From Planctomycetota bacterium (GTDB lineage Bacteria; Planctomycetota; MHYJ01; WSZJ01), in the NCBI GenBank assembly GCA_038060895.1, contig JBBTCT010000021.1:36370-94368 (forward strand): DNA of 57,999 nucleotides. The letters run 5' to 3'. Positions 4,476 to 57,999 of this stretch are shown here, piece by piece. Position 1 is the stretch's first letter. Each line of letters begins with the position of its first letter. The notes under the pieces were generated by a model, which saw only the letters and a program-made list of their open reading frames with translations, was not told the DNA's origin and did not search any database. The translations under genes and the position numbers were made by a program.

Positions 4476-5297
4476 GGCCCATCTCCCTCTGCCGGGCATC
4501 CCATGCGGCTGCGCATCCACGCAGGAACTCACGGATCTCCGCTTCCCGCCGCGGAATCGCAGTTCAGAATCTGGATTTCTCATCGGATTGAATTTGAAGA
4601 GCTGTAAGGGTGGGAGTGAACACCAGATCGAGGGCTGGACGCGCTCACCATGGAGTAGCATCGGAAGCGGGCGAGTGAGCTAGTGATCGACCGTTTCGAC
4701 TCGCCAGCTCGATCGAAGTTCGGAAACACAGCAACGGTGTAATGCCTTACTTTGGAGGACACAGAAAACCAGCCATTCCCTGGCCGTCCCCCCGACGGCC
4801 ACTCTTGACACCCCCCGGCCACCCCTCCGGCCGGGGGTACTTTGTTGCTTTGACGAGGCCACCGACAGCTGTGGCGGGGGAGAGCATGATTTGGAACTAC
4901 TCATTGCCGATCGGCTCTGTCAAAGGTGATCGCCGGACGCCCTGCCAAAAGCAGTGTACTCCGTGGTCGGCTTGGCGCGAGGCTCGCGCATCTGCCCGCG
5001 GCCGGTGCTTGGGTGTCGTCTTGGTTTTCCTCTCCCAGCCGCTGGTGCCCTTCTTTGGCGCGTCAGCGCAGGTCCTGGCATGCGTGCCGCCGGTCCTGAA
5101 GCTGGCGCCGGTGATTACGATTCCTACCGACTGATCCGCGAGATGCTGAAAGATTGATCGTCGAATTTTAGAGGGTCCCCTGTACAGGTCTATTGTCGAG
5201 CATGCTGGTTGTTCCCTCAGATCCAGAGAATGGCAAGACGACCTGAAGGTCGGATGCCTGTCCCGGCGCGCAAACCAGCTACGCTAAGGAGCCTGCC

Positions 5298-5579
5298 ATG
5301 AGACTTGCCTATATCGCCTTTTCCTTGCTATTGACGCTGGTGGCCGCGATCCCGGGATATAGCTGACCCCCTCCCAATGCCCCCCTTTACGAAGGGGGCA
5401 GTGCGGGCAGCGGTCCGCTGCCTGGTATGGACGGCATGAAGCCCGAGAGCCCGAAGCAAGGTGAGCCTCCCCCCAAGGGCTCCAGGCAGGAACCCGTTCC
5501 CGGCGGCGAAACGCCAACAAGTGAGGAATCCACCCAGCCAGCGCAGGAAGAAGTGGCGACGGAAGAAGTAGCCATGTAG
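5298..5579 (+). CDS. Small secreted low-complexity protein with in-frame TGA (codon 23); candidate recoded gene or pseudogene
   Basis: TAAGGAG RBS; signal peptide MRLAYIAFSLLLTLVAAIPGYS, then TGA 5364-5366; frame stays open 70 more codons to TAG 5577-5579; hairpin at 5378-5400. Confidence 0.45.
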
Positions 5580-6176
5580 TGCGGAGGTCCAATTCGCGAA
5601 CGACGATTCGTACGGCGCACCCTGAATGAAACCGAACCGGCACGCCAAGTGTGGGGAAAATTTGTACCGACGAACGCCCTCAGCGGTGGCGACGACCGAA
5701 CAGCCGATTGACCTAATGCGCTACCACGCGTAAGGGACTGGGATATGTGTGGATTCGCTTCCGGGGCCTTCACGGCATCCCTCTCGAAGCGAGCAGGGGG
5801 TCAGCTTCTCGGCTTGCTCGCCTCCTTCCCGGCGCGCAATCTTTCTTGGTAGAGGCGACTAACGGGCTCGGCGCGACATTCCAAGCGAGGCTCGGCTTAC
5901 TCAAGCTCTGAGGAATGCGGAAAAACACCATGAGCCGACACGTGCAGGTTTGTCCGTAGTTCGTATCCGCATTCATCATCGCCCATCGCGGAGGGGGGTG
6001 GATGGAAGCGAGGGCTCCGGCGGCAGGAGGCACGGCCCGGCGCGCGGGTGGGTCTCTGGTGAGGGAGGGGTTCAACGCACCGGGCCGCGCCCCCCGCCTC
6101 CTCCGCCTTCGCTTCCACCCAACCCCCCCCGCGATCGAAGTGCGAAGGACGGAGATCTGCTGCCTGGGGGTACCAG

Positions 6177-7217
6177 TTAGTAAACCGGCCCCGTGCTCTC
6201 GACCTTGCCGTCCCTCGAGATCTTCATCAGCCGGCACGCCGAAGTCACACCCCAGAACCCGCCGTCCGCCGCGGGCGCGAATCCCGCCCAGTACTCCGGC
6301 CACCCGGGAAGGCGGTCGACCTCGAACTTCACCGCGGTGCCGCCGTCCAGCGTGCAGATCGCGCCCGATCTCAACCCGCCGCCAATCGCCAACTTTCCGT
6401 CGGCGGACCACCCGCGCCCGTAGTTGTAGCTCGTCGTCACTTCAAAAATCGTCACGTCTCCCTTGGGCGTGATCCGCGCGCACACGTCGTCGTACGTCAC
6501 GATCCAGGCGAAGTCGCCCGCCGACATCACTCCGACCCTGCCGCGCGCTGAGAAAAATGTCTTCGCTTCCGCGAGCACCTTGCCCGACGGCGCCTCGAGC
6601 CATTTCACCGTCGCCGCCTGCGCGTCGTTCTTCTGGATCCATTCCTTCCGCGGCGCGCCTTTCAGTTCCTTCGGGATCGCGGCGTACTCGGCCTTCGGCT
6701 CCGCCTTGTCCTCGGCCGACTCCATAAGCACCACGGCCTTCGTCCCCGCCGAGTCGAGCCCGATCGACCCGATCCGGCCTTCGACCGCGGTCTTGCCTTT
6801 CTCGGCGCCGTCCGTCATCGACAGGAAACGGACCCCTTTCTCCTTCGCTGAAACCGCGAGCAGGAGATCCGCCGCGGGCGCGAACGCGCAATCCCCGGCG
6901 TCGGCGACCTTCTGGACTTCCTTCCACGTGGAAGTGTCAAAGATGTGGAGGACCTCGTCGTCGTCCTCGAGGCAGAGGCGCGAGCCGTCCTTCGAAAATG
7001 ACAGCGCGCCGACGCGCGACTGGATCCAGATCCGCTGTTTGACTTCGCGCGTCGCGGCGTCGAGGACGTAGAGCACGCGGTTTTCGCCGCCGCAGACGAC
7101 GGTCTTGCCGTCCGGGCTCGCGGCCACGGCGCCCAGGCCGCCCCACTCAGGATCGCGGGCGGCGGAGAGGGAAGCGCAGGCAGCGACGAGGGCGAGCGAG
7201 ACGAGAGTGCGGCGCAT
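6177..7217 (-). CDS. Secreted WD40/YVTN-like beta-propeller protein
   Basis: Signal peptide; repeats SPDGK, FSKDGS, WSADGK. Confidence 0.8.
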   Translation of the reverse strand: MRRTLVSLALVAACASLSAARDPEWGGLGAVAASPDGKTVVCGGENRVLYVLDAATREVKQRIWIQSRVGALSFSKDGSRLCLEDDDEVLHIFDTSTWKEVQKVADAGDCAFAPAADLLLAVSAKEKGVRFLSMTDGAEKGKTAVEGRIGSIGLDSAGTKAVVLMESAEDKAEPKAEYAAIPKELKGAPRKEWIQKNDAQAATVKWLEAPSGKVLAEAKTFFSARGRVGVMSAGDFAWIVTYDDVCARITPKGDVTIFEVTTSYNYGRGWSADGKLAIGGGLRSGAICTLDGGTAVKFEVDRLPGWPEYWAGFAPAADGGFWGVTSACRLMKISRDGKVESTGPVY

Positions 7218-27137: not shown

Positions 27138-27524
27138 CTACTTCAGCTTCGCCATTGCGTCGAGATAGACCTTTCCAGGCGTTCCCGACAGCGTCGGGTG
27201 CGCCGTGCCGGTGACGCGCTTGTGGAGATCCGCGACGTCGGCATTCGACTCGACCGGGAGCCACTTCTCGACGGTGCCGCGCTTGAGCTGCACCACGGGG
27301 CCTTTGCCTTTCGGCGAAGCGTCGTTGGGGATCACGGCGAACTGCCCGATGACCCACTCGTTGCCCGCGGAGTCCTTGATGGACTTTCCCTGGAGAGGCC
27401 GAAGCGCGGCCTGGCCGTCGCCGTCGGGGTAGGGGCCCGAATAGCCGGGCGGTTCCGGTTTCCGGGTGCAGCAGCACGCGGTGAGGGCGAACAGCAAGGG
27501 AAGGCAGGCGAGCCAGCGCTTCAT
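27138..27524 (-). CDS. Putative lipoprotein, last gene of the ECF/macroglobulin operon
   Basis: MKRWLACLPLLFALTAC lipobox followed by CC; ATGA overlap with the upstream stop. Confidence 0.8.
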   Translation of the reverse strand: MKRWLACLPLLFALTACCCTRKPEPPGYSGPYPDGDGQAALRPLQGKSIKDSAGNEWVIGQFAVIPNDASPKGKGPVVQLKRGTVEKWLPVESNADVADLHKRVTGTAHPTLSGTPGKVYLDAMAKLK

Positions 27525-30500
27525 TTCCTCTCCTTGACGACGATCCGGCGCGGACTGGACACGCCGTTGTTGTCGGGCGCATAGTATTCGTACACGCCGC
27601 TCGCCGGGGACTGGGCGACGATGGGGAAGCGCGGGCGGAGGTCGTAGGCGACGCGGATCGGGGCGCCGGGGGCGACCTTGCCGAAGTAAAGCGTGATCTG
27701 GCGGCCGGTGAGCGAGTACTTGTCTATCGCGCCGGATTCCTTCAGCCGCTCGAAAGCGGACGGGTCCGGCTCGAAACCGGGCGGGATGCCGAGGTCTGCG
27801 ATCACCATCGACGTCTCGCGGCCGCGAAGGGTCAGGCTCGCCGTCGCGTGAAGGACGCCGTCGAGGTCGATCTCCTGCTTGTCGTAGGCGACTTCGATGG
27901 AAAGGGGAGGGGCCTCGGGGCGAGGAGCGAGATGCCACGGGAGATAGAAGCGCCCCGCGACCTGGTACGACGCCGACAGCTCGCCGTCCGATTCCAGCTC
28001 GATCGTGTTCTCACCCTCCTCGACGGGGATCTCCGCCTGCTGGTACAGGTCAAACGTCTCCCCGTTGATCCCGCGGAACGCGCCGAGGATCTCCTTCCCA
28101 TTCACGCGCAGCTTCACGTGCACCGGTCGCTCCGGCTTTTTCGCCGCTCCGCCGTCTTCCAGCAACGCTTTGATCGCCAGAATCGTCGCCTGCGTCGAGC
28201 CCCAGTCGCCGTGCGGCTGCCGGTTCTTCGACAACCACGCCAGCGCTTCCGCCGCCCGCGGCGACCGCGTCCGCCCGCACGCCAGCGCCGCCAGCGCCGT
28301 CGCTTCGATCGCTGCCGTGTTGCCTCTCGCGCCGCAGAGCCCGTCCTGCGCCGTCCCCCAATGCGTCAGCGCCCCTTCGCGCACCGCCGATTTCTCGAGC
28401 GGAGCGACATCCGAAGCCCTTCCCAGCGCCAGCGCCACGAGTCCCTGCACGTACGGATCGGAAGCTTCCGCCGCGTGAGACGCGACCCAGGCCGTGCCTC
28501 GCTGGACTTCCGGGTCGTTGAGGCCGGCCTCGCGAAGCGCCCACACGACGTACGCCGTCATCGGAAGCCGCCCGTTGCCGAGCTGCCCCCACGTGTGCAT
28601 CCCGAGGTCGAGCGACCAGCCGCCGTCCTTGTCCTGCCGCGAATACAGCACCCGCTTCGCCCGAGCCACGACGTCCGGGTCCACGTCGCGCACCTTCGCC
28701 ATGTCCGTGAACAGGAGGATTCCGTACGCCGTCAGGATCGTCTTCGCCGGCGCCCGGCCGTACCAGTCGAACCCGCCGCCGCTCACTTCAAAGGTCAGCA
28801 GCCGCTGGTAGCCCGCGTTCAGCGCTTCGTCGAGCTTCATCTGCCATTCAGGGGTCAACTGACCCGTCTTCCGGAGGTAGGCCATCACGAGAACGTTCGG
28901 ATAGGCCACGCTCGAGGTCTGCTCGAATCAGCCATACGGCAGCCGCACGAGGCCTTCAAGGCCGCCGACGACTTCGGAGAAGCGGCTCGGGTAGAGGCGG
29001 ACCCAGGCGCGGGAAGCGCCGTCGACGGCGTCCGAGGGGATCGTGACTTTCGTGGAAGCGCGGTCGCGCAGGACGTCGTTGGCGGAGAGCGGCATCTCGC
29101 GGCCGTCCGGCACGACGTCGATCGCGCGGCGGATCGCGTCGGCAAACTCCGGCGACGTCGCGGTCACTTTCAGTTTGTGCCGTCCGAACTCGCGCGCCTT
29201 CACGTGGAAGTACACCGAGCGCACGTCGTTGGCGGCGATGGTCAGCGTCTTCTTCGCGTCGTCCTTGATCTCGAACCCGCTCTCGGCTTCGAACTCCAGC
29301 ACCACGCGCTGCTCCCGCTCGAGGTAGTTGTACACCGCGACCGGGATCCACACTTCGTCCCCCTGCGTCAGCGCCACCGGCAGGTCGATATCTGCAAAGA
29401 ATGGTTGGAACACCCGCAACGGCGCGTCCATCGCCCCCAGCCGCCCGCCCCGATCCACCGCCGACATCCCCATCCGCCACGTCGTGATCGAGTCCGCGCC
29501 GGGAAAGCGCAGCGTCGCGCGGCCCTCGTTGTCGGTGACGATCTCGGGGTTCCAGTAGAGGGTTTCGGGGAAGTATTCGCGGAGGCGGGGGGCGTTGGGT
29601 GTAGACGGCCCGACTTTGGACTCAGTCTTGAAGGCCACATCGACCACGTTCGGAGATGCGGCGCCACTCGCCGGCTTGGCGGATTCCCTCGCGGACAGGA
29701 CTCCGTCGAAACTGCGCCCCCTCGTGCTAGACAGGGAAGGCAGCAACAGGCCGGCGAAGATCACAATGAGGATGAGGCCCACCACGAGCGCCCCCAGCCA
29801 GGCATGTTCTTCCTTCGTGGTCTGGAGGACCGTCTGGATGACGACATAGATCAGGCCGCCCAGGATGGTCAGGACCAGCGTCAGCGCCCTGACCGCGTCG
29901 AGGGCGCCGTCCGAATCCGGCAAGAGCACCAGGAGCACGATCGTGCCGGCGAGCAGGGACAGCCAGATCCGTGTGTACTGCATTGCGAACCCGATCAACC
30001 TGAACACCCAAACAAGGACGATCAGTGCAGCGGTCCATGCCAGGACCGCCTGGGTGCCTGCCACCTCGCTTCGGCGCCACCGCGCGAACCGCTCGAGCTT
30101 GAGGTGCCATTCGTTGCTGGCGAACTGCTGTGCCGCGGGTTTTTCCGCGATCGCCACTCGCGCCGGTGACGGATCGTCGGATGCGAGCGCGCCCGCAGGC
30201 TTGAGCTGGAAACGCGGCTTGAGCAGCTCTTCCTGGATCGCGAAGTACGTCGCTTCGAGCCCCGGGCGCGCGTCGTTGAGCGCAAACACCGCTTCATCGA
30301 CCACCGACACGCTCAGCGCGGACGGCGCGGGCATCCCGTCCGGCCCGAACACCTGTACTTCCGCCGTCATTTCGTCCCCCGGCTTGAACGGCTCCGGGCG
30401 GATTGCGGGGCGGATCTCGAGGCCCTTGGCGGGCATGACGACGATCGGGCGCGAGTCGCGCCAGATGTGGCCGTCCTCGCGGACGCGGTAGACGGCGACG

Positions 30501-32182
30501 CGGGCGGAACCGCGCAGCTCGGTCGGCAGGTCGATCGCGATGTCGGCGCGGCCCTTCACGACGTCGATGGTCTTCGTGAGATACGTGAACGCGCCGCGCG
30601 TCAGGTCGAGGTAGACCGGGCCATCGGTGCGCGAGAGAACCGTGACTTGCATTGTCTGGCCGGTGCGGTACTGCGAGAAGTCGGTGCGCAGAAGGAAATC
30701 CTGCTCCGCGCGGCCGTCGCGGTCGAGGTCGGCGACCAGCCGGCCGCTTCGGCCGTCATCGTCGTGCGCGAGAAGTTCGAATCGCGGGCCGGGGATCGGG
30801 ACTTCGAGGACGCCGTTCTCGTCGGTCTGGCGCTCGCCTTGCCCCTTGAAGCGCACCCAGGCGCGTGCGGCGCTTCCGTCGGGGTAGGAGCAGACGATGT
30901 ACATCTTTTGGGCGACGCCGGGGACGTACTCGCCGCCTTCGGGGACGGCGACCAGGCGGAGCGGCGTGGCCGTGACAGGGAGGAGGACGGCCTTGCGCTC
31001 GACGTGGCCGGCCGTGTCGGTGACCGAAGCTTCGCACCGCACGAGCGCGCTGCCGCCTTCGAGCTCGGTGCCGTACAGCTTTTTCGGTATTTCCAGCATC
31101 AGCCGCGCGTGCCCTTTCTCGTCCGCGCGCATCACCGCAGTCCCCGCTTCCTTGAAGTCGTCTCCGACCCAGTGCGAGAGCGTCACGCGCACATCCGCGC
31201 CGGCGCAGGGCTTGCCGAAGAGGTAGTCGGCGTCGACGTCGGCGTACAGCGTGCGGCCGGGGGCGTAGAAGCGCTGGTCGGTCGCGAGGTCCACGCGAAA
31301 TTTCGGCAGAACGTAGCGCTTCACTTCGAAGACGCGCTCGCTCTCGACGCCGCCCGCGACGGCCTTGGCGCGCCACGGGCCGAGGAGAACTTCATCGGCG
31401 AGATCGAGGTCGAACGCGGCGATTCCGAACTCGGACGTCTTCAGCGTCTTGCGCTCGACCTTGTTGCCGTTGGCGTCCTCGATTTCGAGCGAGACCTCGC
31501 CCTTGAACGGCCTGAGCGCGACGTCGTCCATGGCGAGGATGCGGAAGTGGACCGTCTGCTCCGGCTGATAGATCGGCTTGTCCGTCGAGATGAGCACGCG
31601 CACCGGGCGCTCGATCGTGACCTTCTTCGTGATGCGGTCCTCGCCCATCGCCGAAATCACCGTGAGGATGAGCACCGCGTCGCGCGAGGCCGGTACCGGC
31701 AGCCGCACGTCGGCGCAGCCGTCCGCGCCGGAGACCGCTTCGACCTTCGCGCCGCCTTCGATCTCGGCGACGACTTTCGCGCCTGCGATCGCCGCCTGCG
31801 TCTGCCCGTTGCGCACGAGCACGCGCAGCGAACCAGTCGCGCCCTCGACCCACGTCCGGGCGCCGATCACCGAGACCTGCTGAACCTGCGGCTCCTGCTT
31901 CTCAATCCACGCGCGCCAGCCGCCGACGGCAAGAAGCGCGACCGCGGCCGCGGCGAGGAAGCCCCACTTGAACAGTCCGCCGCGCGCAGGGATCCGCACC
32001 GGCTTGCCGCCCGCCGCTTCGTCCTGGAGCCGTACCGCAGCCTGCGCGAGCAATCCATCCGCGCGCCGGAGCGTCTCCAGCTTCGCGCGGCACGCCTCGC
32101 AGCTGGCGAGATGCTGCTCGAGCTCCGGCGCCTTGCCATCGAGGTACCAGGAGAGCTTCGCTTCGCAGTCAACGCAGTTCAT
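27521..32182 (-). CDS. Zinc-finger anti-sigma / alpha-2-macroglobulin-family fusion with in-frame TGA at the thioester Cys (codon 1085), 1553 aa
   Basis: HLASCEAC zf-HC2 plus TM; TDKPIYQP and YVLPKF MG domains; VVDEAVFAL; LREYFPETLYW; DSITTW; LPYG-TGA-FEQTSS (TGA 28930-28928) in frame with ORF 27521-28909; GYQRLL; DLGIPPGF; VYEYYAP. Confidence 0.88.
28888..28927 (-). promoter_or_regulatory. Candidate SECIS element of the macroglobulin gene
   Basis: UGA UUCGAGCAGACCUC GAGCGU GGCCUAUCCGA ACGUUC: stem closes a loop starting GG at +21. An alternative UCGAG/CUCGA hairpin lies next to the UGA. Confidence 0.45.
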
Positions 32183-32202
32183 GGCGATTTCGTTCCTTCC
32201 TC

Positions 32203-32466
32203 TTAAGACCGGCGCGAACGGGCAAAGGCGTAAAACACGGTGAACACCAAGGCCAGGACCAGCAGGCACGGCACCGACCAGTTCTGGACCTCATCGGAGT
32301 TCGGGAACTCCCTCAGGAGTCGGCGTCCGGTTCGGGACACCGATGCGAAGAGGCCGCTCCGCGGCCCTCCACTGCGGGCTAACCCTCAGGTGTAATGCAC
32401 CGAAACGGGGACATGGATTGCCGTTCCCGCAGAACCGGCCGCGCGAGCGACCACAAGAGGCGTCAT
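32203..32466 (-). CDS. Small single-TM protein with in-frame TGA (codon 27), 87 aa, missed by the ORF track
   Basis: GGAAGGAG RBS and ATGA overlap; MTPLVV...VHYT-TGA-GLARSGG...SDEVQNWSVPCLLVLALVFTVFYAFARSRRS-TAA, ending just before the macroglobulin RBS; GGCCGC-GGA-GCGGCC hairpin at 32350-32369. Confidence 0.6.
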
Positions 32467-32720
32467 GATCGCGGCTCCTTCCACGCAACCTGGCCGGAGG
32501 GGCGCGGCTTGTGGAAGACCCACCAGGCCGCGAGCGAGAGCAGAAGCGCGATTCCCCCCAGGATCGCGACCTCTTCCGATCTCAGGCCGAAGTGTGAGCG
32601 TCCGCCGGGACAGCAGGGACGCAGCTGCGAAGTGCCGCACTTCACAGGCGCGGCCGTGTGCTTCACGAGCTTGCCGTCGACGATCCTGTCCTGGCACCAC
32701 GCCATCGGTTCACATCTCAT
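32463..32720 (-). CDS. Small Cys-rich single-TM protein
   Basis: ATGA overlaps at both ends; KCG and CC motifs; SEEV followed by a TM helix. Confidence 0.65.
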   Translation of the reverse strand: MRCEPMAWCQDRIVDGKLVKHTAAPVKCGTSQLRPCCPGGRSHFGLRSEEVAILGGIALLLSLAAWWVFHKPRPSGQVAWKEPRS

Positions 32721-33229
32721 GCGGGTTCTGCTCCCATTCTCTCGGTCACCATCTTCCGGACGCGGTGCAGCTTCTCGCCCACCGACGCCGCGGTCATGCC
32801 CAGGACTTCGCCGATCTCCGCGTAGCTCATCTGCTCCACGAATCTCAGCAGCACGAGCTGCCGGTAGTCCTCGCGCAGGCCGTCGACGATCCGCACGACC
32901 CGTTCGATCAGGTCGTCGGGCTTCTTTTCCGCCACCGGGGCCGCCACGTCCACCAGCTCCTCCGCTTTGTGCCGCTTCTCGCGCCGCAGCCAGTCGATGG
33001 CCGCGTTACGGGTCAGCGTGTACAGCCAGGTTTTCGCCTTCGACGGATCCCGCAGAGTCCCCAGCGCCTTCCACGCCCGCAGGAACGCTTCCTGCGTGAC
33101 GTCGTCGGCGGCGGACGGACTTCGGACCCAGGACAGGGCGAGGGCTCGCACCATCCGTTCGTGTGACTTCACGAAGGTGTCGAAATCCAGGGCCACGGTT
33201 CGGGTGGGAGCGCCTTGTTCCGGGTTCAA
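32717..33229 (-). CDS. ECF sigma-70 factor
   Basis: ADDVTQEAFLRAW, KTWLYTLTRN, region 4 LRFVEQMSYAEIGEVLG. Confidence 0.93.
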   Translation of the reverse strand: MNPEQGAPTRTVALDFDTFVKSHERMVRALALSWVRSPSAADDVTQEAFLRAWKALGTLRDPSKAKTWLYTLTRNAAIDWLRREKRHKAEELVDVAAPVAEKKPDDLIERVVRIVDGLREDYRQLVLLRFVEQMSYAEIGEVLGMTAASVGEKLHRVRKMVTERMGAEPA

Positions 33230-34408: not shown

Positions 34409-35620
34409 ATGCGAAATACGCGGATGCTGTGGATTCTCGGTCTTGCGGCGGGGGCAGCCATGACTCCGGCCCTCGCAGAGGACCCGCCCAGGGGCGCCGA
34501 GTTCACGGCTCCAGTGCGCCTGAAGGCCGCCGGTGAGTTCGTCCGGACCGAGGAGCCGGGCTACGCGGCGCCCTGCTGGGCCGACGCGGACGGCGACGGC
34601 AGGAAGGACCTGATCGTCGGCCAGTTCTCCGGGGGCAAAATGAAGGTCTATCGAAACCTCGGCGAAGGCAAGCTCGCGGAGGGGCGCTGGCTCGAGGCCG
34701 AGGGCAAGGTAGCCGAGGTGCCGGGGGTCTGGTGATGCACGAGCGCGACTCCACAGTTCGTGGATCTCAACGGTGACGGCAAGGTCGACATTCTTTCAGG
34801 CTCGTACTCGCGCGATGAAGGGGACATGGCGGGCCTGTTCCAGGTGTTGTGGGGAGTCGAGGGCGGGGGCTTCAAAGCGCCTGCGGTCCTCAACGGCACC
34901 GACGGCCAGCCCCTGATCATCGCGGACGACGACGACATTCCCAGGATCTGCACCCGGCCGACGGCGGTGGACCTCAACGGCGACGGCAAGCTGGACATCG
35001 TCTCGGGCAATTTCGCCGGCACGTTCGCGTTCTTCCCCGGCGAGGGCGAGGGCCGGTTCGCGCCGAAACACACGCTGCTGACCGGCGCCGACGGCGCTTC
35101 GCTCAACGTGGACGACCACAGCGATCCGTTCTTCGTCGACTGGGACGGCGACGGCGACCTCGACTTGCTCAGCGGGTCCGCTTCCGGCGGCGTGTCCCTG
35201 TTCGTCAATCTCGGCTCGAAGAAGGAAGCGAAGTTCGGCAAGCCGGTGGCACTGGTGCCGGCCGTCGAGAACGAGCCTTCCGGCGCCCGCATGGGCGATG
35301 AATGGCTGAAGGGGCCACAGTCGGATACCCGCGTCTGGGCCGACGACCTCAACGGCGACGGCAAGCTTGACCTCCTGATCGGAGACTCGGTCACGCTGGT
35401 GTACCCGGCGGCCGGGCTTGAAGTGGCGCAGGCTCGGGAGAAGCTCGCCGAGTGGTCGGCCAGAATGGAAAAGGCGGGAGCCGCGCTCCGCGCGGGCGGA
35501 GGGCCCACGGCAGAGGACAAGAAAAAGTACCAGGAGGAGTGGCAGAAGCTCCGGAAAGAGCGCGAGACGATCGTGCGCGAGGACTCGACCGGATTCGTCT
35601 GGGTGATGTACCGGAAGTAG
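34409..35620 (+). CDS. Secreted FG-GAP/VCBS repeat protein with in-frame TGA (codon 109, W-U-C), 403 aa
   Basis: ORFs 34409-34735 and 34760-35620 share a frame: VPGVW-TGA-CTSATPQFVDLNGDGKVD. DxxGDGxxDL repeats lie on both sides; hairpin TCCAC-AGTTC-GTGGA at 34750-34764. Confidence 0.82.
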
Positions 35621-56795: not shown

Positions 56796-57999
56796 CTGCC
56801 GCAATCCCTTGCCCCGCGCGATCGCGCCTTCGCCGAAGTCGCACGCGCGCGCGGCTGGGCCGACGACGCCGCGCTCGCCCGCGCCGCCGCCGAATCCGCA
56901 GCCGGCGGCCATTCCCTTCCAGACACGCTCTTCCGCTCCGGCGTTCTCACGGTGGAGCAGATCCGATCGTTGTCGGAAGCCGTCGATGGCGTCCCCTCGA
57001 CGGTCGTCCCGCGCGGCGAGCCTGCTGTGGGCGCCGCCCCGCCGCCCGAGGGCGCGAGCATCGGTCCCTACCGCCTCGTCAAGGAACTCGGCCGTGGCGG
57101 CGTCGGCGTGGTCTATCGAGCGCTTCACACCGGCCTTCTTCGTGAAGTCGCGCTGAAAGTTCTCCTGCGCGGCGCCGACGCGTCCGAAGAACAGGAGGCG
57201 CGCTTCCGCCGCGAGGCCGAAGTGCTGGCGAAACTCGGGCGCCATCCCAATCTCGTGCAGGTGTACGACGTGGGGCGCGAGGAAGGCCGGCTCTGGTTCG
57301 CGATGGACTTCGTGGACGGGCCCGCGCTCTCCGAAATCGCGCGCGGGAAAACACCGCTGCCGCCTCGCGAGGCTGCTTCCATTGTCGCCGACGCCGCGTC
57401 CGGCCTCGCCGCGGCCCACGCCGCCGGGATCGTCCACCGCGACGTCAAGCCCGCCAACATCCTCGTCGCGCACGACGGCCGCGGCGTCGTCGGCGACTTC
57501 GGACTCGCCCGCGACCAACGCGGCTCTTCCGGCCTCACCCTCAGCGGCGACGTCTTCGGCACGCCCGCGTACATGAGCCCCGAGCAGGCGGCCGGAGGCG
57601 GCCGCCACGCGACGGCCGCTTCGGACATTTTTTCGCTCGGCGCTTCGCTGTACGAAGCTCTGACCGGGAAGCAGCCGTTCGACGGGATGTCAATGGCCGA
57701 CCTGCTGAAAAAGGTCATCGAGGAAGAGCCGCTTCCGCCGGCGTCGCTGCGACCGGAGTTGCATGCGGACCTGGAGGTGATCTGCCTGAAGGCGATGCGA
57801 AAGAGGCCGGAGGGCCGGTATGCGTCGGCGAAGGCGATGGAGTCCGACCTGCGGCGCTGGCTTGCGGGGGAGCCGATCGAGGCGCGGCCGCAGGGGGCGC
57901 TGGAGCGTTGGGGCGCGTGGGCGGGGCGTCGGCGGGGGCTGGTGGCGGCGGTCGTGATCGCGGCCGTGGCCGCGGCCGGGGGAGTGGGAAGATCGGAAG
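56796..57999 (+). CDS. Ser/Thr protein kinase, runs off the window end; start codon uncertain
   Basis: Manual translation: LAPRDRAFAEVARARGWADD...LGRGGVGVVY...HRDVKPAN...DFGLAR...GTPAYMSPE. No in-frame ATG before the kinase domain; CTG56796 or TTG56730 are possible starts. Confidence 0.85.
   Translation, partial: MPQSLAPRDRAFAEVARARGWADDAALARAAAESAAGGHSLPDTLFRSGVLTVEQIRSLSEAVDGVPSTVVPRGEPAVGAAPPPEGASIGPYRLVKELGRGGVGVVYRALHTGLLREVALKVLLRGADASEEQEARFRREAEVLAKLGRHPNLVQVYDVGREEGRLWFAMDFVDGPALSEIARGKTPLPPREAASIVADAASGLAAAHAAGIVHRDVKPANILVAHDGRGVVGDFGLARDQRGSSGLTLSGDVFGTPAYMSPEQAAGGGRHATAASDIFSLGASLYEALTGKQPFDGMSMADLLKKVIEEEPLPPASLRPELHADLEVICLKAMRKRPEGRYASAKAMESDLRRWLAGEPIEARPQGALERWGAWAGRRRGLVAAVVIAAVAAAGGVGRSE

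Follow-up and report, generated by a model that had tools for sequence, protein, structure and literature searches.

Is the in-frame UGA of an alpha-2-macroglobulin (A2M)-like gene from a Planctomycetota bacterium a stop, a lesion or a codon for selenocysteine (Sec), and what would selenium do at a position at which A2M carries its thioester cysteine (Cys)? The gene is located on the minus strand (27521..32182) of the window, i.e. the whole stretch of 57,999 nucleotides analysed here (assembly GCA_038060895.1, contig JBBTCT010000021.1, positions 36,370 to 94,368). Its translation begins at an ATG (32182), a start backed by orthologues with the N-terminus MECRDCEAKLSWYLDG, and runs over 1553 codons to a terminal TGA (27521-27523). 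A single internal stop is present, the TGA at 28930-28928 within LEGLVRLPYG-TGA-FEQTSSVAYPN. The initial annotation had joined two open reading frames (ORFs) of the same frame across this TGA, seen no other lesion and proposed programmed recoding of the thioester Cys codon to Sec. Both proposals were borne out, the latter by a conserved TGA column, Cys homologues, the Sec machinery, a structure resembling a Sec insertion sequence (SECIS) and purifying selection. We consider it very probable that UGA 1085 is decoded as Sec. By the prevailing view, Sec serves redox catalysis in almost every selenoprotein.

Judged by its domains, the predicted product is a member of the A2M/C3/TEP thioester-protein family, a single inner-membrane protein of 1553 residues. 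Pfam domains follow each other in the order known from A2M: MG2 (E = 9.4e-22), MG3 (1.3e-6), A2M_BRD (2.5e-12), A2M (9.6e-19), TED_complement (1.3e-37, residues 1070-1341) and A2M_recep (8.2e-13), each above its cut-off. The best sequence match among solved structures was human A2M (6tav, E 4e-45), which aligned over 680 of 694 residues (query 860-1553); CD109, A2ML1, TEP1 and C3 were also near. The thioester domain (TED, residues 1070-1341; 28160..28975, minus strand), delimited by Pfam and by alignment to human A2M, contains the UGA (28928..28930, minus strand) as codon 1085 in P-Y-G-U-F-E-Q. In the alignment of G-U-F-E-Q with human PYGCGEQ the UGA stands under the thioester Cys, so that the nucleophile would be Sec instead of Cys. 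NCBIfam 20.0 had no model for the A2M-like protein and returned weak squalene-cyclase and anti-sigma matches alone. An Rfam scan of the window found a tRNA-Val alone.

Here we examined the codon in homologues. A six-frame search detected homologues in 41 of 61 related genomes. In all of the 20 loci returned for the best matches (38-100% identity) TGA was present at the exact column, and in homologues further away the motif was GCFEQ or GCVEQ, with a TGC or TGT codon. In a sample of the phylum 172 of 401 genomes gave a match at E <= 1e-20; the 29 loci returned were 15 G-U-FEQ and 14 G-C-FEQ forms. Those relatives that carry names are metagenome-assembled genomes (MAGs) of Planctomycetota or Planctomycetia, the phylum that the initial annotation had correctly guessed. 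A metagenome scan, in which one search pattern was biased towards Cys forms, brought in another 80 loci, of which 29 carried TGA and 51 Cys. The deduplicated tree set thus comprised 52 distinct Sec forms and, beside them, 72 Cys forms with TGC or TGT. The tree (FastTree) needs at least 7 switches between Sec and Cys, 4 of which are forced by well-supported branches; a smaller IQ-TREE analysis with 49 rows needed 2. A subgroup of Sec forms with GUFEQ-STS-(V/A)-TY (metagenome contigs L125, L127, L129, L134, L136, L137, L143, L146, L148-L151, L162, L167, L183, L185, L186) has four Cys forms nested within its clade.

A single TGC>TGA change would suffice to produce such a codon by gene decay, sequencing or assembly error. 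This was rejected and is barely conceivable: the same TGA is shared by dozens of assemblies made independently and by contigs from other studies, and selection continues downstream. Contig X6 of an independent study, from a slightly diverged strain, bridges the codon with the TGA intact; a contig of X4 covers it with 27 letters beyond and the metatranscriptome contig X11 covers it without bridging. In the contigs (as distinct from raw reads) of other runs no other letter was seen at 28928-28930; X3, X4 and X11 cover the stretch in part. Between the window gene and four congeners dN/dS was 0.14-0.17 over 225 codons upstream of the UGA and 0.17-0.25 over 440 codons downstream. The downstream ratio is close to the upstream one; therefore relaxed selection behind the UGA, which the initial annotation had named as a refuting observation together with a TGA unique to this genome, is absent, and with 52 TGA forms the codon is anything but unique.

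Could the UGA be a true stop in a conserved split gene, giving a 1084-residue N-terminal protein and perhaps a separate C-terminal one of 460 residues? Gene callers split the gene, a GTG is present 7 codons past the UGA and in a collection of 5.8 billion proteins no read-through protein, i.e. none of 854-2718 residues, was more than 52% identical to the part behind the UGA. However, genomic orthologues of 75-89% identity do exist in public MAGs. The gap in the protein collection is therefore explained by gene callers which split the Sec forms, and probably hundreds of such genes are mis-annotated as two fragments. Further, the break is a TGA in 52 of 52 distinct forms, it always falls on the thioester Cys codon itself, in the centre of the TED motif, its distribution follows that of selA and a stem-loop specific for Sec forms accompanies it (see below). 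Translation into two proteins is thus highly improbable. The Sec-form genes terminate in TAA, TAG or TGA 440-508 codons past the UGA without a further TGA. In the window's genome TGA terminates 692 of 1693 long coding-like ORFs; together with the mixed gene ends this ruled out a genome-wide reassignment of TGA. A second Sec site in two homologues (L067 and L083) was rejected as well, the TGAs flagged there being the terminal stops.

Decoding as Sec requires a dedicated machinery, and this is present. The genome (5.4 Mb in 47 contigs, 86.5% complete) contains selA (541 bits), selB (310.7 bits) and selD (364 bits), each above cut-off, and a tRNA-Sec with the anticodon UCA (71.7 bits). Its selD is itself a selenoprotein gene (SSCAG-U-ASKLGP; contig C2, 48628-49548, minus strand, outside the window) with a compact SECIS, GGGUCC-GGC-GGACCU, the loop of which is 17 nt past the UGA. 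Among the 24 genomes with a verified TGA form, selA scored above cut-off in 23, the exception (G240) being 59% complete, and tRNA-Sec in 21. The best homologue lacked the TGA in 13 genomes (with a verified Cys codon in 12, all but G081); 5 of these had selA above cut-off and 1 had selA fragments, whereas in the other 7 it was not found. Because control genomes also give low-scoring tRNA-Sec matches, such matches are unreliable, and selA is the better marker of the Sec machinery.

The initial annotation had also pointed to a possible hairpin 3' of the UGA. The hairpin exists and distinguishes Sec forms from Cys homologues. Hairpin 1, the SECIS candidate (28874..28913, minus strand), extends from +17 to +56 counted from the U of the UGA and has about 16 bp; in the minimum free energy (MFE) fold of the window gene and its clade the apical loop, ACGUUC, is 31 nt past the UGA. 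Over +18..+58 the MFE in the genome set was -14.15 kcal/mol in 26 Sec forms compared to -4.79 in 16 Cys forms, at nearly equal GC contents of 0.55 and 0.56, and an upstream control window showed no difference. The metagenome set repeated the gap (-10.64 in 26 Sec and -4.63 in 48 Cys forms). When the structure was fixed to alignment columns, 74.7% of the cells paired in the Sec alignment, compared to 33.5-49.6% with the partner column slid; the covariation score of 0.145 was reached in 0 of 500 shuffles (shuffled mean 0.089). The same columns in 14 Cys forms were paired at 36.1%, i.e. at background, and the covariation excess was absent. The sequences that form the stem differ between clades. 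In the GUFEQ-STS subgroup the codons for S-T-S-V-T-Y form the element GUACGUC-GG(U/C)-GACGUAC, a 7-bp stem with a GGU or GGC loop 17 nt past the UGA. This corresponds to the geometry of the selD SECIS and agrees with all four criteria of the bacterial SECIS (bSECIS) model as set out in section 5 of PMC13188914.

In the main clade alone a second hairpin follows (hairpin 2; 28852..28865, minus strand; +65 to +78; GGGUC-AGUU-GACCC), which resembles the selD SECIS of the same genome. It overlaps the conserved peptide TGQLTP, which is kept in close Cys forms and corresponds to QLTPE in human A2M; its role is uncertain because of this overlap. As a general SECIS hairpin 2 was rejected for the same overlap and because Sec and Cys forms did not differ in the metagenome set. 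It may still matter in the main clade.

Several results weigh against Sec decoding as described so far. Hairpin 1 of the window gene agrees with the bSECIS model in stem, loop size, spacing (31 nt) and energy, i.e. in three of its four criteria; the loop G, however, is at the third position and not at the first or second. Compared with shuffled sequences, the 64 nt downstream of the window's UGA are by themselves unexceptional (z = -0.99). Hairpin 2 is not general, with -5.79 in Sec and -5.90 in Cys forms of the metagenome set. As the Sec and Cys sequences are kin, the Mann-Whitney p-values of 2e-7 and 4e-7 overstate the case. The RNA contig over the site, X11, does not bridge it, and DNA can occur in an RNA library. 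One might therefore think of a UGA read without Sec-tRNA, either by near-cognate Cys or Trp tRNA or by other recoding, which would result in an ordinary thioester or no ester at all; the loop G of hairpin 1 would leave room for this. Yet the TGA forms co-occur with selA, a tRNA-Sec(UCA) is present, one subgroup has a canonical SECIS and TGA is a common true stop in the genome. Reading without Sec-tRNA is thus very unlikely, and we proceed from Sec at residue 1085.

What is the use of Sec at this position? Sec would take the place of the Cys in the thioester motif to yield G-U-F-E-Q. In the folded protein its selenol would attack the side-chain amide of glutamine (Gln) 1088, forming an internal selenoester, which would be a more reactive acyl donor than a Cys-Gln thioester; once exposed, it would form a covalent link with a target's nucleophile. 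What chiefly speaks for the ester is that U/C-F-E-Q, including the Gln, was kept in every locus examined, in the genome as in the metagenome sets, while Sec and Cys swap repeatedly at one position. Such a pattern is seen with functionally equivalent Sec and Cys nucleophiles, and a conserved Sec at the thioester residue implies selection for acyl-selenium chemistry. Provided that Sec is inserted, a Sec-Gln selenoester is, given the invariant motif, the more probable outcome. Chemistry speaks against it: starting from an amide, formation of a selenoester is thermodynamically less favourable than that of a thioester, the selenoester is intrinsically more labile, and Sec could serve otherwise. Moreover, we infer both the selenium in the protein and the ester bond from sequence.

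Possibly, then, Sec is inserted and no stable selenoester is formed, and in the ectodomain of an anti-sigma factor the residue senses redox state or electrophiles, binds a metal or acts as no more than a transient nucleophile. The lability of selenoesters and the signalling role of the protein (see below) are in line with this, as is the fact that most known selenoproteins are redox proteins (so section 7 of PMC13188914). Against these roles speak the E-Q behind the nucleophile, which was kept in all Sec forms examined, the interchange of Sec and Cys inside an otherwise unchanged thioester motif and a complete MG/TED/receptor-binding domain (RBD) machinery under purifying selection. Sec without a stable ester is therefore doubtful, though far from negligible, and we retain the internal selenoester as the preferred reading.

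The remainder of the protein suggests how such a warhead might be used. Residues 1-70 (31973..32182, minus strand) constitute a domain like that of zinc anti-sigma (ZAS) factors, with H24-x3-C28-x2-C31; this HxxxCxxC set was invariant in 6 of 6 aligned orthologues. The Pfam zf-HC2 match of the window protein remained under the cut-off (17.3 vs 22.2 bits), which also counts against the proposal; relatives carry PF13490 as a precomputed annotation. Directly upstream is a gene for an extracytoplasmic function (ECF) sigma factor (32717..33229, minus strand; Sigma70_r2 and Sigma70_r4_2). Using the window's sigma protein as a tblastn query, an ECF sigma gene was detected directly upstream in 11 further distinct genes among 22 loci, 8 Sec and 3 Cys forms, although four of the 14 rows outside the window (L050-L053) repeat the same contigs, which would leave 7 distinct Sec forms. 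These include genus orthologues, the distant Sec forms L095, L094 and L028 (59%, 37% and 27% identity) and the Cys forms L085, L088 and L086. No upstream sigma gene was found by this query in L084, L087 and L089-L093; most of L087 and L089-L093 have a signal-peptide-like N-terminus in place of the anti-sigma domain.

When the sigma factor was modelled in complex with residues 1-75, the score was 0.82, compared to 0.01 for the best control; the runs shared at least 82% of the contacts and the pLDDT of the partner was at least 81. Of 80 solved complexes 58 reach the mark applied, and of 110 mismatched pairs 2 do so, which is a rough calibration as our own alignments were used. Because sigma and anti-sigma factors are a textbook pair, the pass stands for likeness, not for binding, and may reflect likeness to solved complexes. 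That the A2M-like protein is a fusion with an anti-sigma factor, i.e. that the Sec-bearing polypeptide has an anti-sigma domain, is strongly supported. Its cognate pairing with the upstream ECF sigma factor is a model-based prediction. Between the two genes are about 530 nt (32183-32716) which may form a long leader or have a regulatory function. A lone 104-codon ORF there (32386-32700, minus strand) belongs to no Pfam family and failed the coding filter (GC3 >0.78, GC2 <0.6).

A Kyte-Doolittle scan predicted a first transmembrane helix at about residues 68-93 (31904..31981, minus strand) and a cluster of four hydrophobic helices at about residues 707-821 (29720..30064, minus strand), between the A2M_BRD and A2M domains. 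Here 226 residues (636-861) separate the end of A2M_BRD (635) from the point at which the alignment to human A2M resumes (about 862). This segment we take to be at the position of the bait region of human A2M. The initial annotation had overlooked both the anti-sigma fusion and the helices at the bait position. The number of helices being even, both halves of the A2M machine would be on the outer side of the membrane. Among the homologues L084-L095 the helices at the bait position vary from 0 to about 7 in a crude hydropathy scan, in Sec and Cys forms alike. In some Cys-form homologues from other phyla (P0016, P0018, P0026, P0027, P0044 and others) the anti-sigma domain is replaced by an N-terminus like that of type II secretion pseudopilins (PF08334); the A2M module has therefore been joined to several membrane anchors.

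Taken together, the following sequence of events is proposed. It is strongly supported that SelA, SelB, SelD and tRNA-Sec read the in-frame UGA as Sec, directed by the stem-loop that starts about 17 nt downstream. The N-terminal HxxxCxxC domain would hold the product of the upstream ECF sigma gene. The MG/TED ectodomain would be outside of the cytoplasmic membrane, with the four-helix membrane segment in place of the bait region. A trigger at the ectodomain or the membrane, for instance cleavage by a protease or a reaction of the warhead, would be passed on and set the sigma factor free. The whole chain, Sec decoding, internal selenoester and anti-sigma signalling architecture, appears fairly probable to us. 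That a widespread bacterial family stores a Sec-Gln selenoester warhead in its TED, many members being wired to an ECF sigma factor, has an even chance.

The initial annotation had counted six other in-frame TGAs in the window in favour of recoding. This count did not survive. A crude scan yielded seven candidates including that of the A2M gene, and one other was conserved, in an FG-GAP protein. Two of the others are antisense to the A2M gene and one is an ordinary stop; those at 57154-57156 (plus strand) and 50335-50333 (minus strand) have at least 90 high-GC3 codons on each side and may be artefacts of high-GC frames. The conserved one is in an FG-GAP/VCBS-repeat protein gene of 403 codons (34409-35617, plus strand), with an in-frame TGA at 34733-34735 in ...VPGVW-U-C-TSATPQFVDLNGDG. 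In 31 related genomes, 9 of 11 homologous matches had one TGA, and 8 distinct genes had it at the same G/W-U-C column; one of them is another copy within the window's genome (contig C14). Going by these sequences, the FG-GAP protein is probably a second undescribed selenoprotein family; the term 'FG-GAP' occurs 0 times in the selenoprotein catalogue of 2026 (PMC13188914). The window's genome also encodes an A2M-like paralogue outside the window (contig C12, about 4809-6848, plus strand), 36% identical, with G-U-FEQ and two downstream hairpins with the loops GGCCGA and GGG. The related genomes have several Sec-form A2M-like paralogues each.

How new is such a protein? Table 1 of PMC13188914 lists 119 prokaryotic selenoprotein families and subfamilies, without an entry for A2M, MG2, TED or FG-GAP. 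The main texts of PMC13188914, PMC12013277 (deep-Sep) and PMC9312934 contain none of the words 'macroglobulin', 'thioester' and 'planctomycet'; 'macroglobulin' is likewise absent from PMC4807772, the Table S9 of which, like the supplementary lists of PMC12013277, might hold such a gene. A full-text literature search returned no paper that ties Sec to A2M or thioester proteins, although supplements might hold a mention. Judged from search listings, none of the papers that pair 'macroglobulin' with 'anti-sigma factor' treats an A2M joined to an anti-sigma factor. This is a genuine selenoprotein family and apparently one not described before. The claim of the initial annotation that a non-redox use of selenium had not been described was too broad: the same Table 1 includes predicted non-redox selenoproteins, among them a glutamine-amidotransferase-like one and a methylated-DNA-protein-cysteine methyltransferase. 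What would still be new is a protein that stores a selenoester.

The prokaryotic selenoproteome is thus extended by a family absent from the 119-family catalogue, and eukaryote-like thioester proteins are present in Planctomycetota and relatives. An undescribed signalling design is indicated, an anti-sigma factor with an A2M machine as its sensor. If the ester is formed, this would be the first natural protein selenoester, with Sec used in acyl-transfer, i.e. non-redox, chemistry. If the sensor works as proposed, it would be an envelope sensor of a new kind, in which transcription is controlled by an A2M machine that captures its target covalently or is triggered by proteolysis. A natural selenoester becomes directly testable.

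With human A2M (6tav), CD109, A2ML1, insect TEP1 and complement C3/C4 the window protein shares the domain order MG2, MG3, BRD, A2M, TED, RBD, and with human A2M both PYG-x-x-EQ and QLTPE. It differs from these eukaryote-type thioester proteins in being bacterial, in having Sec for Cys, in its N-terminal anti-sigma domain and transmembrane anchor and in the 226-residue segment with four transmembrane helices at the position of the bait region, or of the ANA domain in C3. The proteobacterial A2M proteins have the motif in the form CLEQ and function as protease traps. Those of E. coli (ECAM/YfhM, 4ziq) and Salmonella (4u48) are likewise bacterial, anchored in the inner membrane and periplasmic, with a CxEQ motif. 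In sequence, however, they are distant (part of the query aligned, with E values of 1e-5 to 8e-5), and unlike the window protein they have Cys, are lipoproteins and are not fused to anti-sigma factors. Cys-form members of the same family stem from Planctomycetota and, according to source names, also from Armatimonadota, Hydrogenedentota, Anaerolineae and others; names such as 'zf-HC2 domain-containing protein' and 'anti-sigma factor RsiW' occur. They have 38-52% identity over the part behind the UGA, the GCFEQ motif and often a zf-HC2 N-terminus, and some have an upstream ECF sigma gene; they differ by TGC or TGT for TGA and have no downstream stem-loop.

In its genetics the family behaves like SelD, FdhA and other bacterial Sec/Cys families, in which a UGA is immediately followed by a SECIS, Cys orthologues exist and switching is patchy. 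The proposed chemistry can be compared with that of the glutamine amidotransferases, by whose mechanism a Sec would be the acyl-accepting nucleophile towards the glutamine amide. The predicted glutamine-amidotransferase-like selenoprotein (GxUxG; PMC13188914 Table 1) shares the UGA/SECIS pattern and Cys orthologues. The acyl-selenium bond proposed here would be a stored intramolecular warhead rather than a catalytic intermediate. Finally, ZAS factors of the RsrA, RslA and ChrR type share the HxxxCxxC N-terminus and the neighbourhood of an ECF sigma gene, and the predicted contacts likewise fall on sigma regions 2 and 4. In contrast to those, the extracytoplasmic sensor of the window protein would be a complete A2M-like thioester/selenoester machine.

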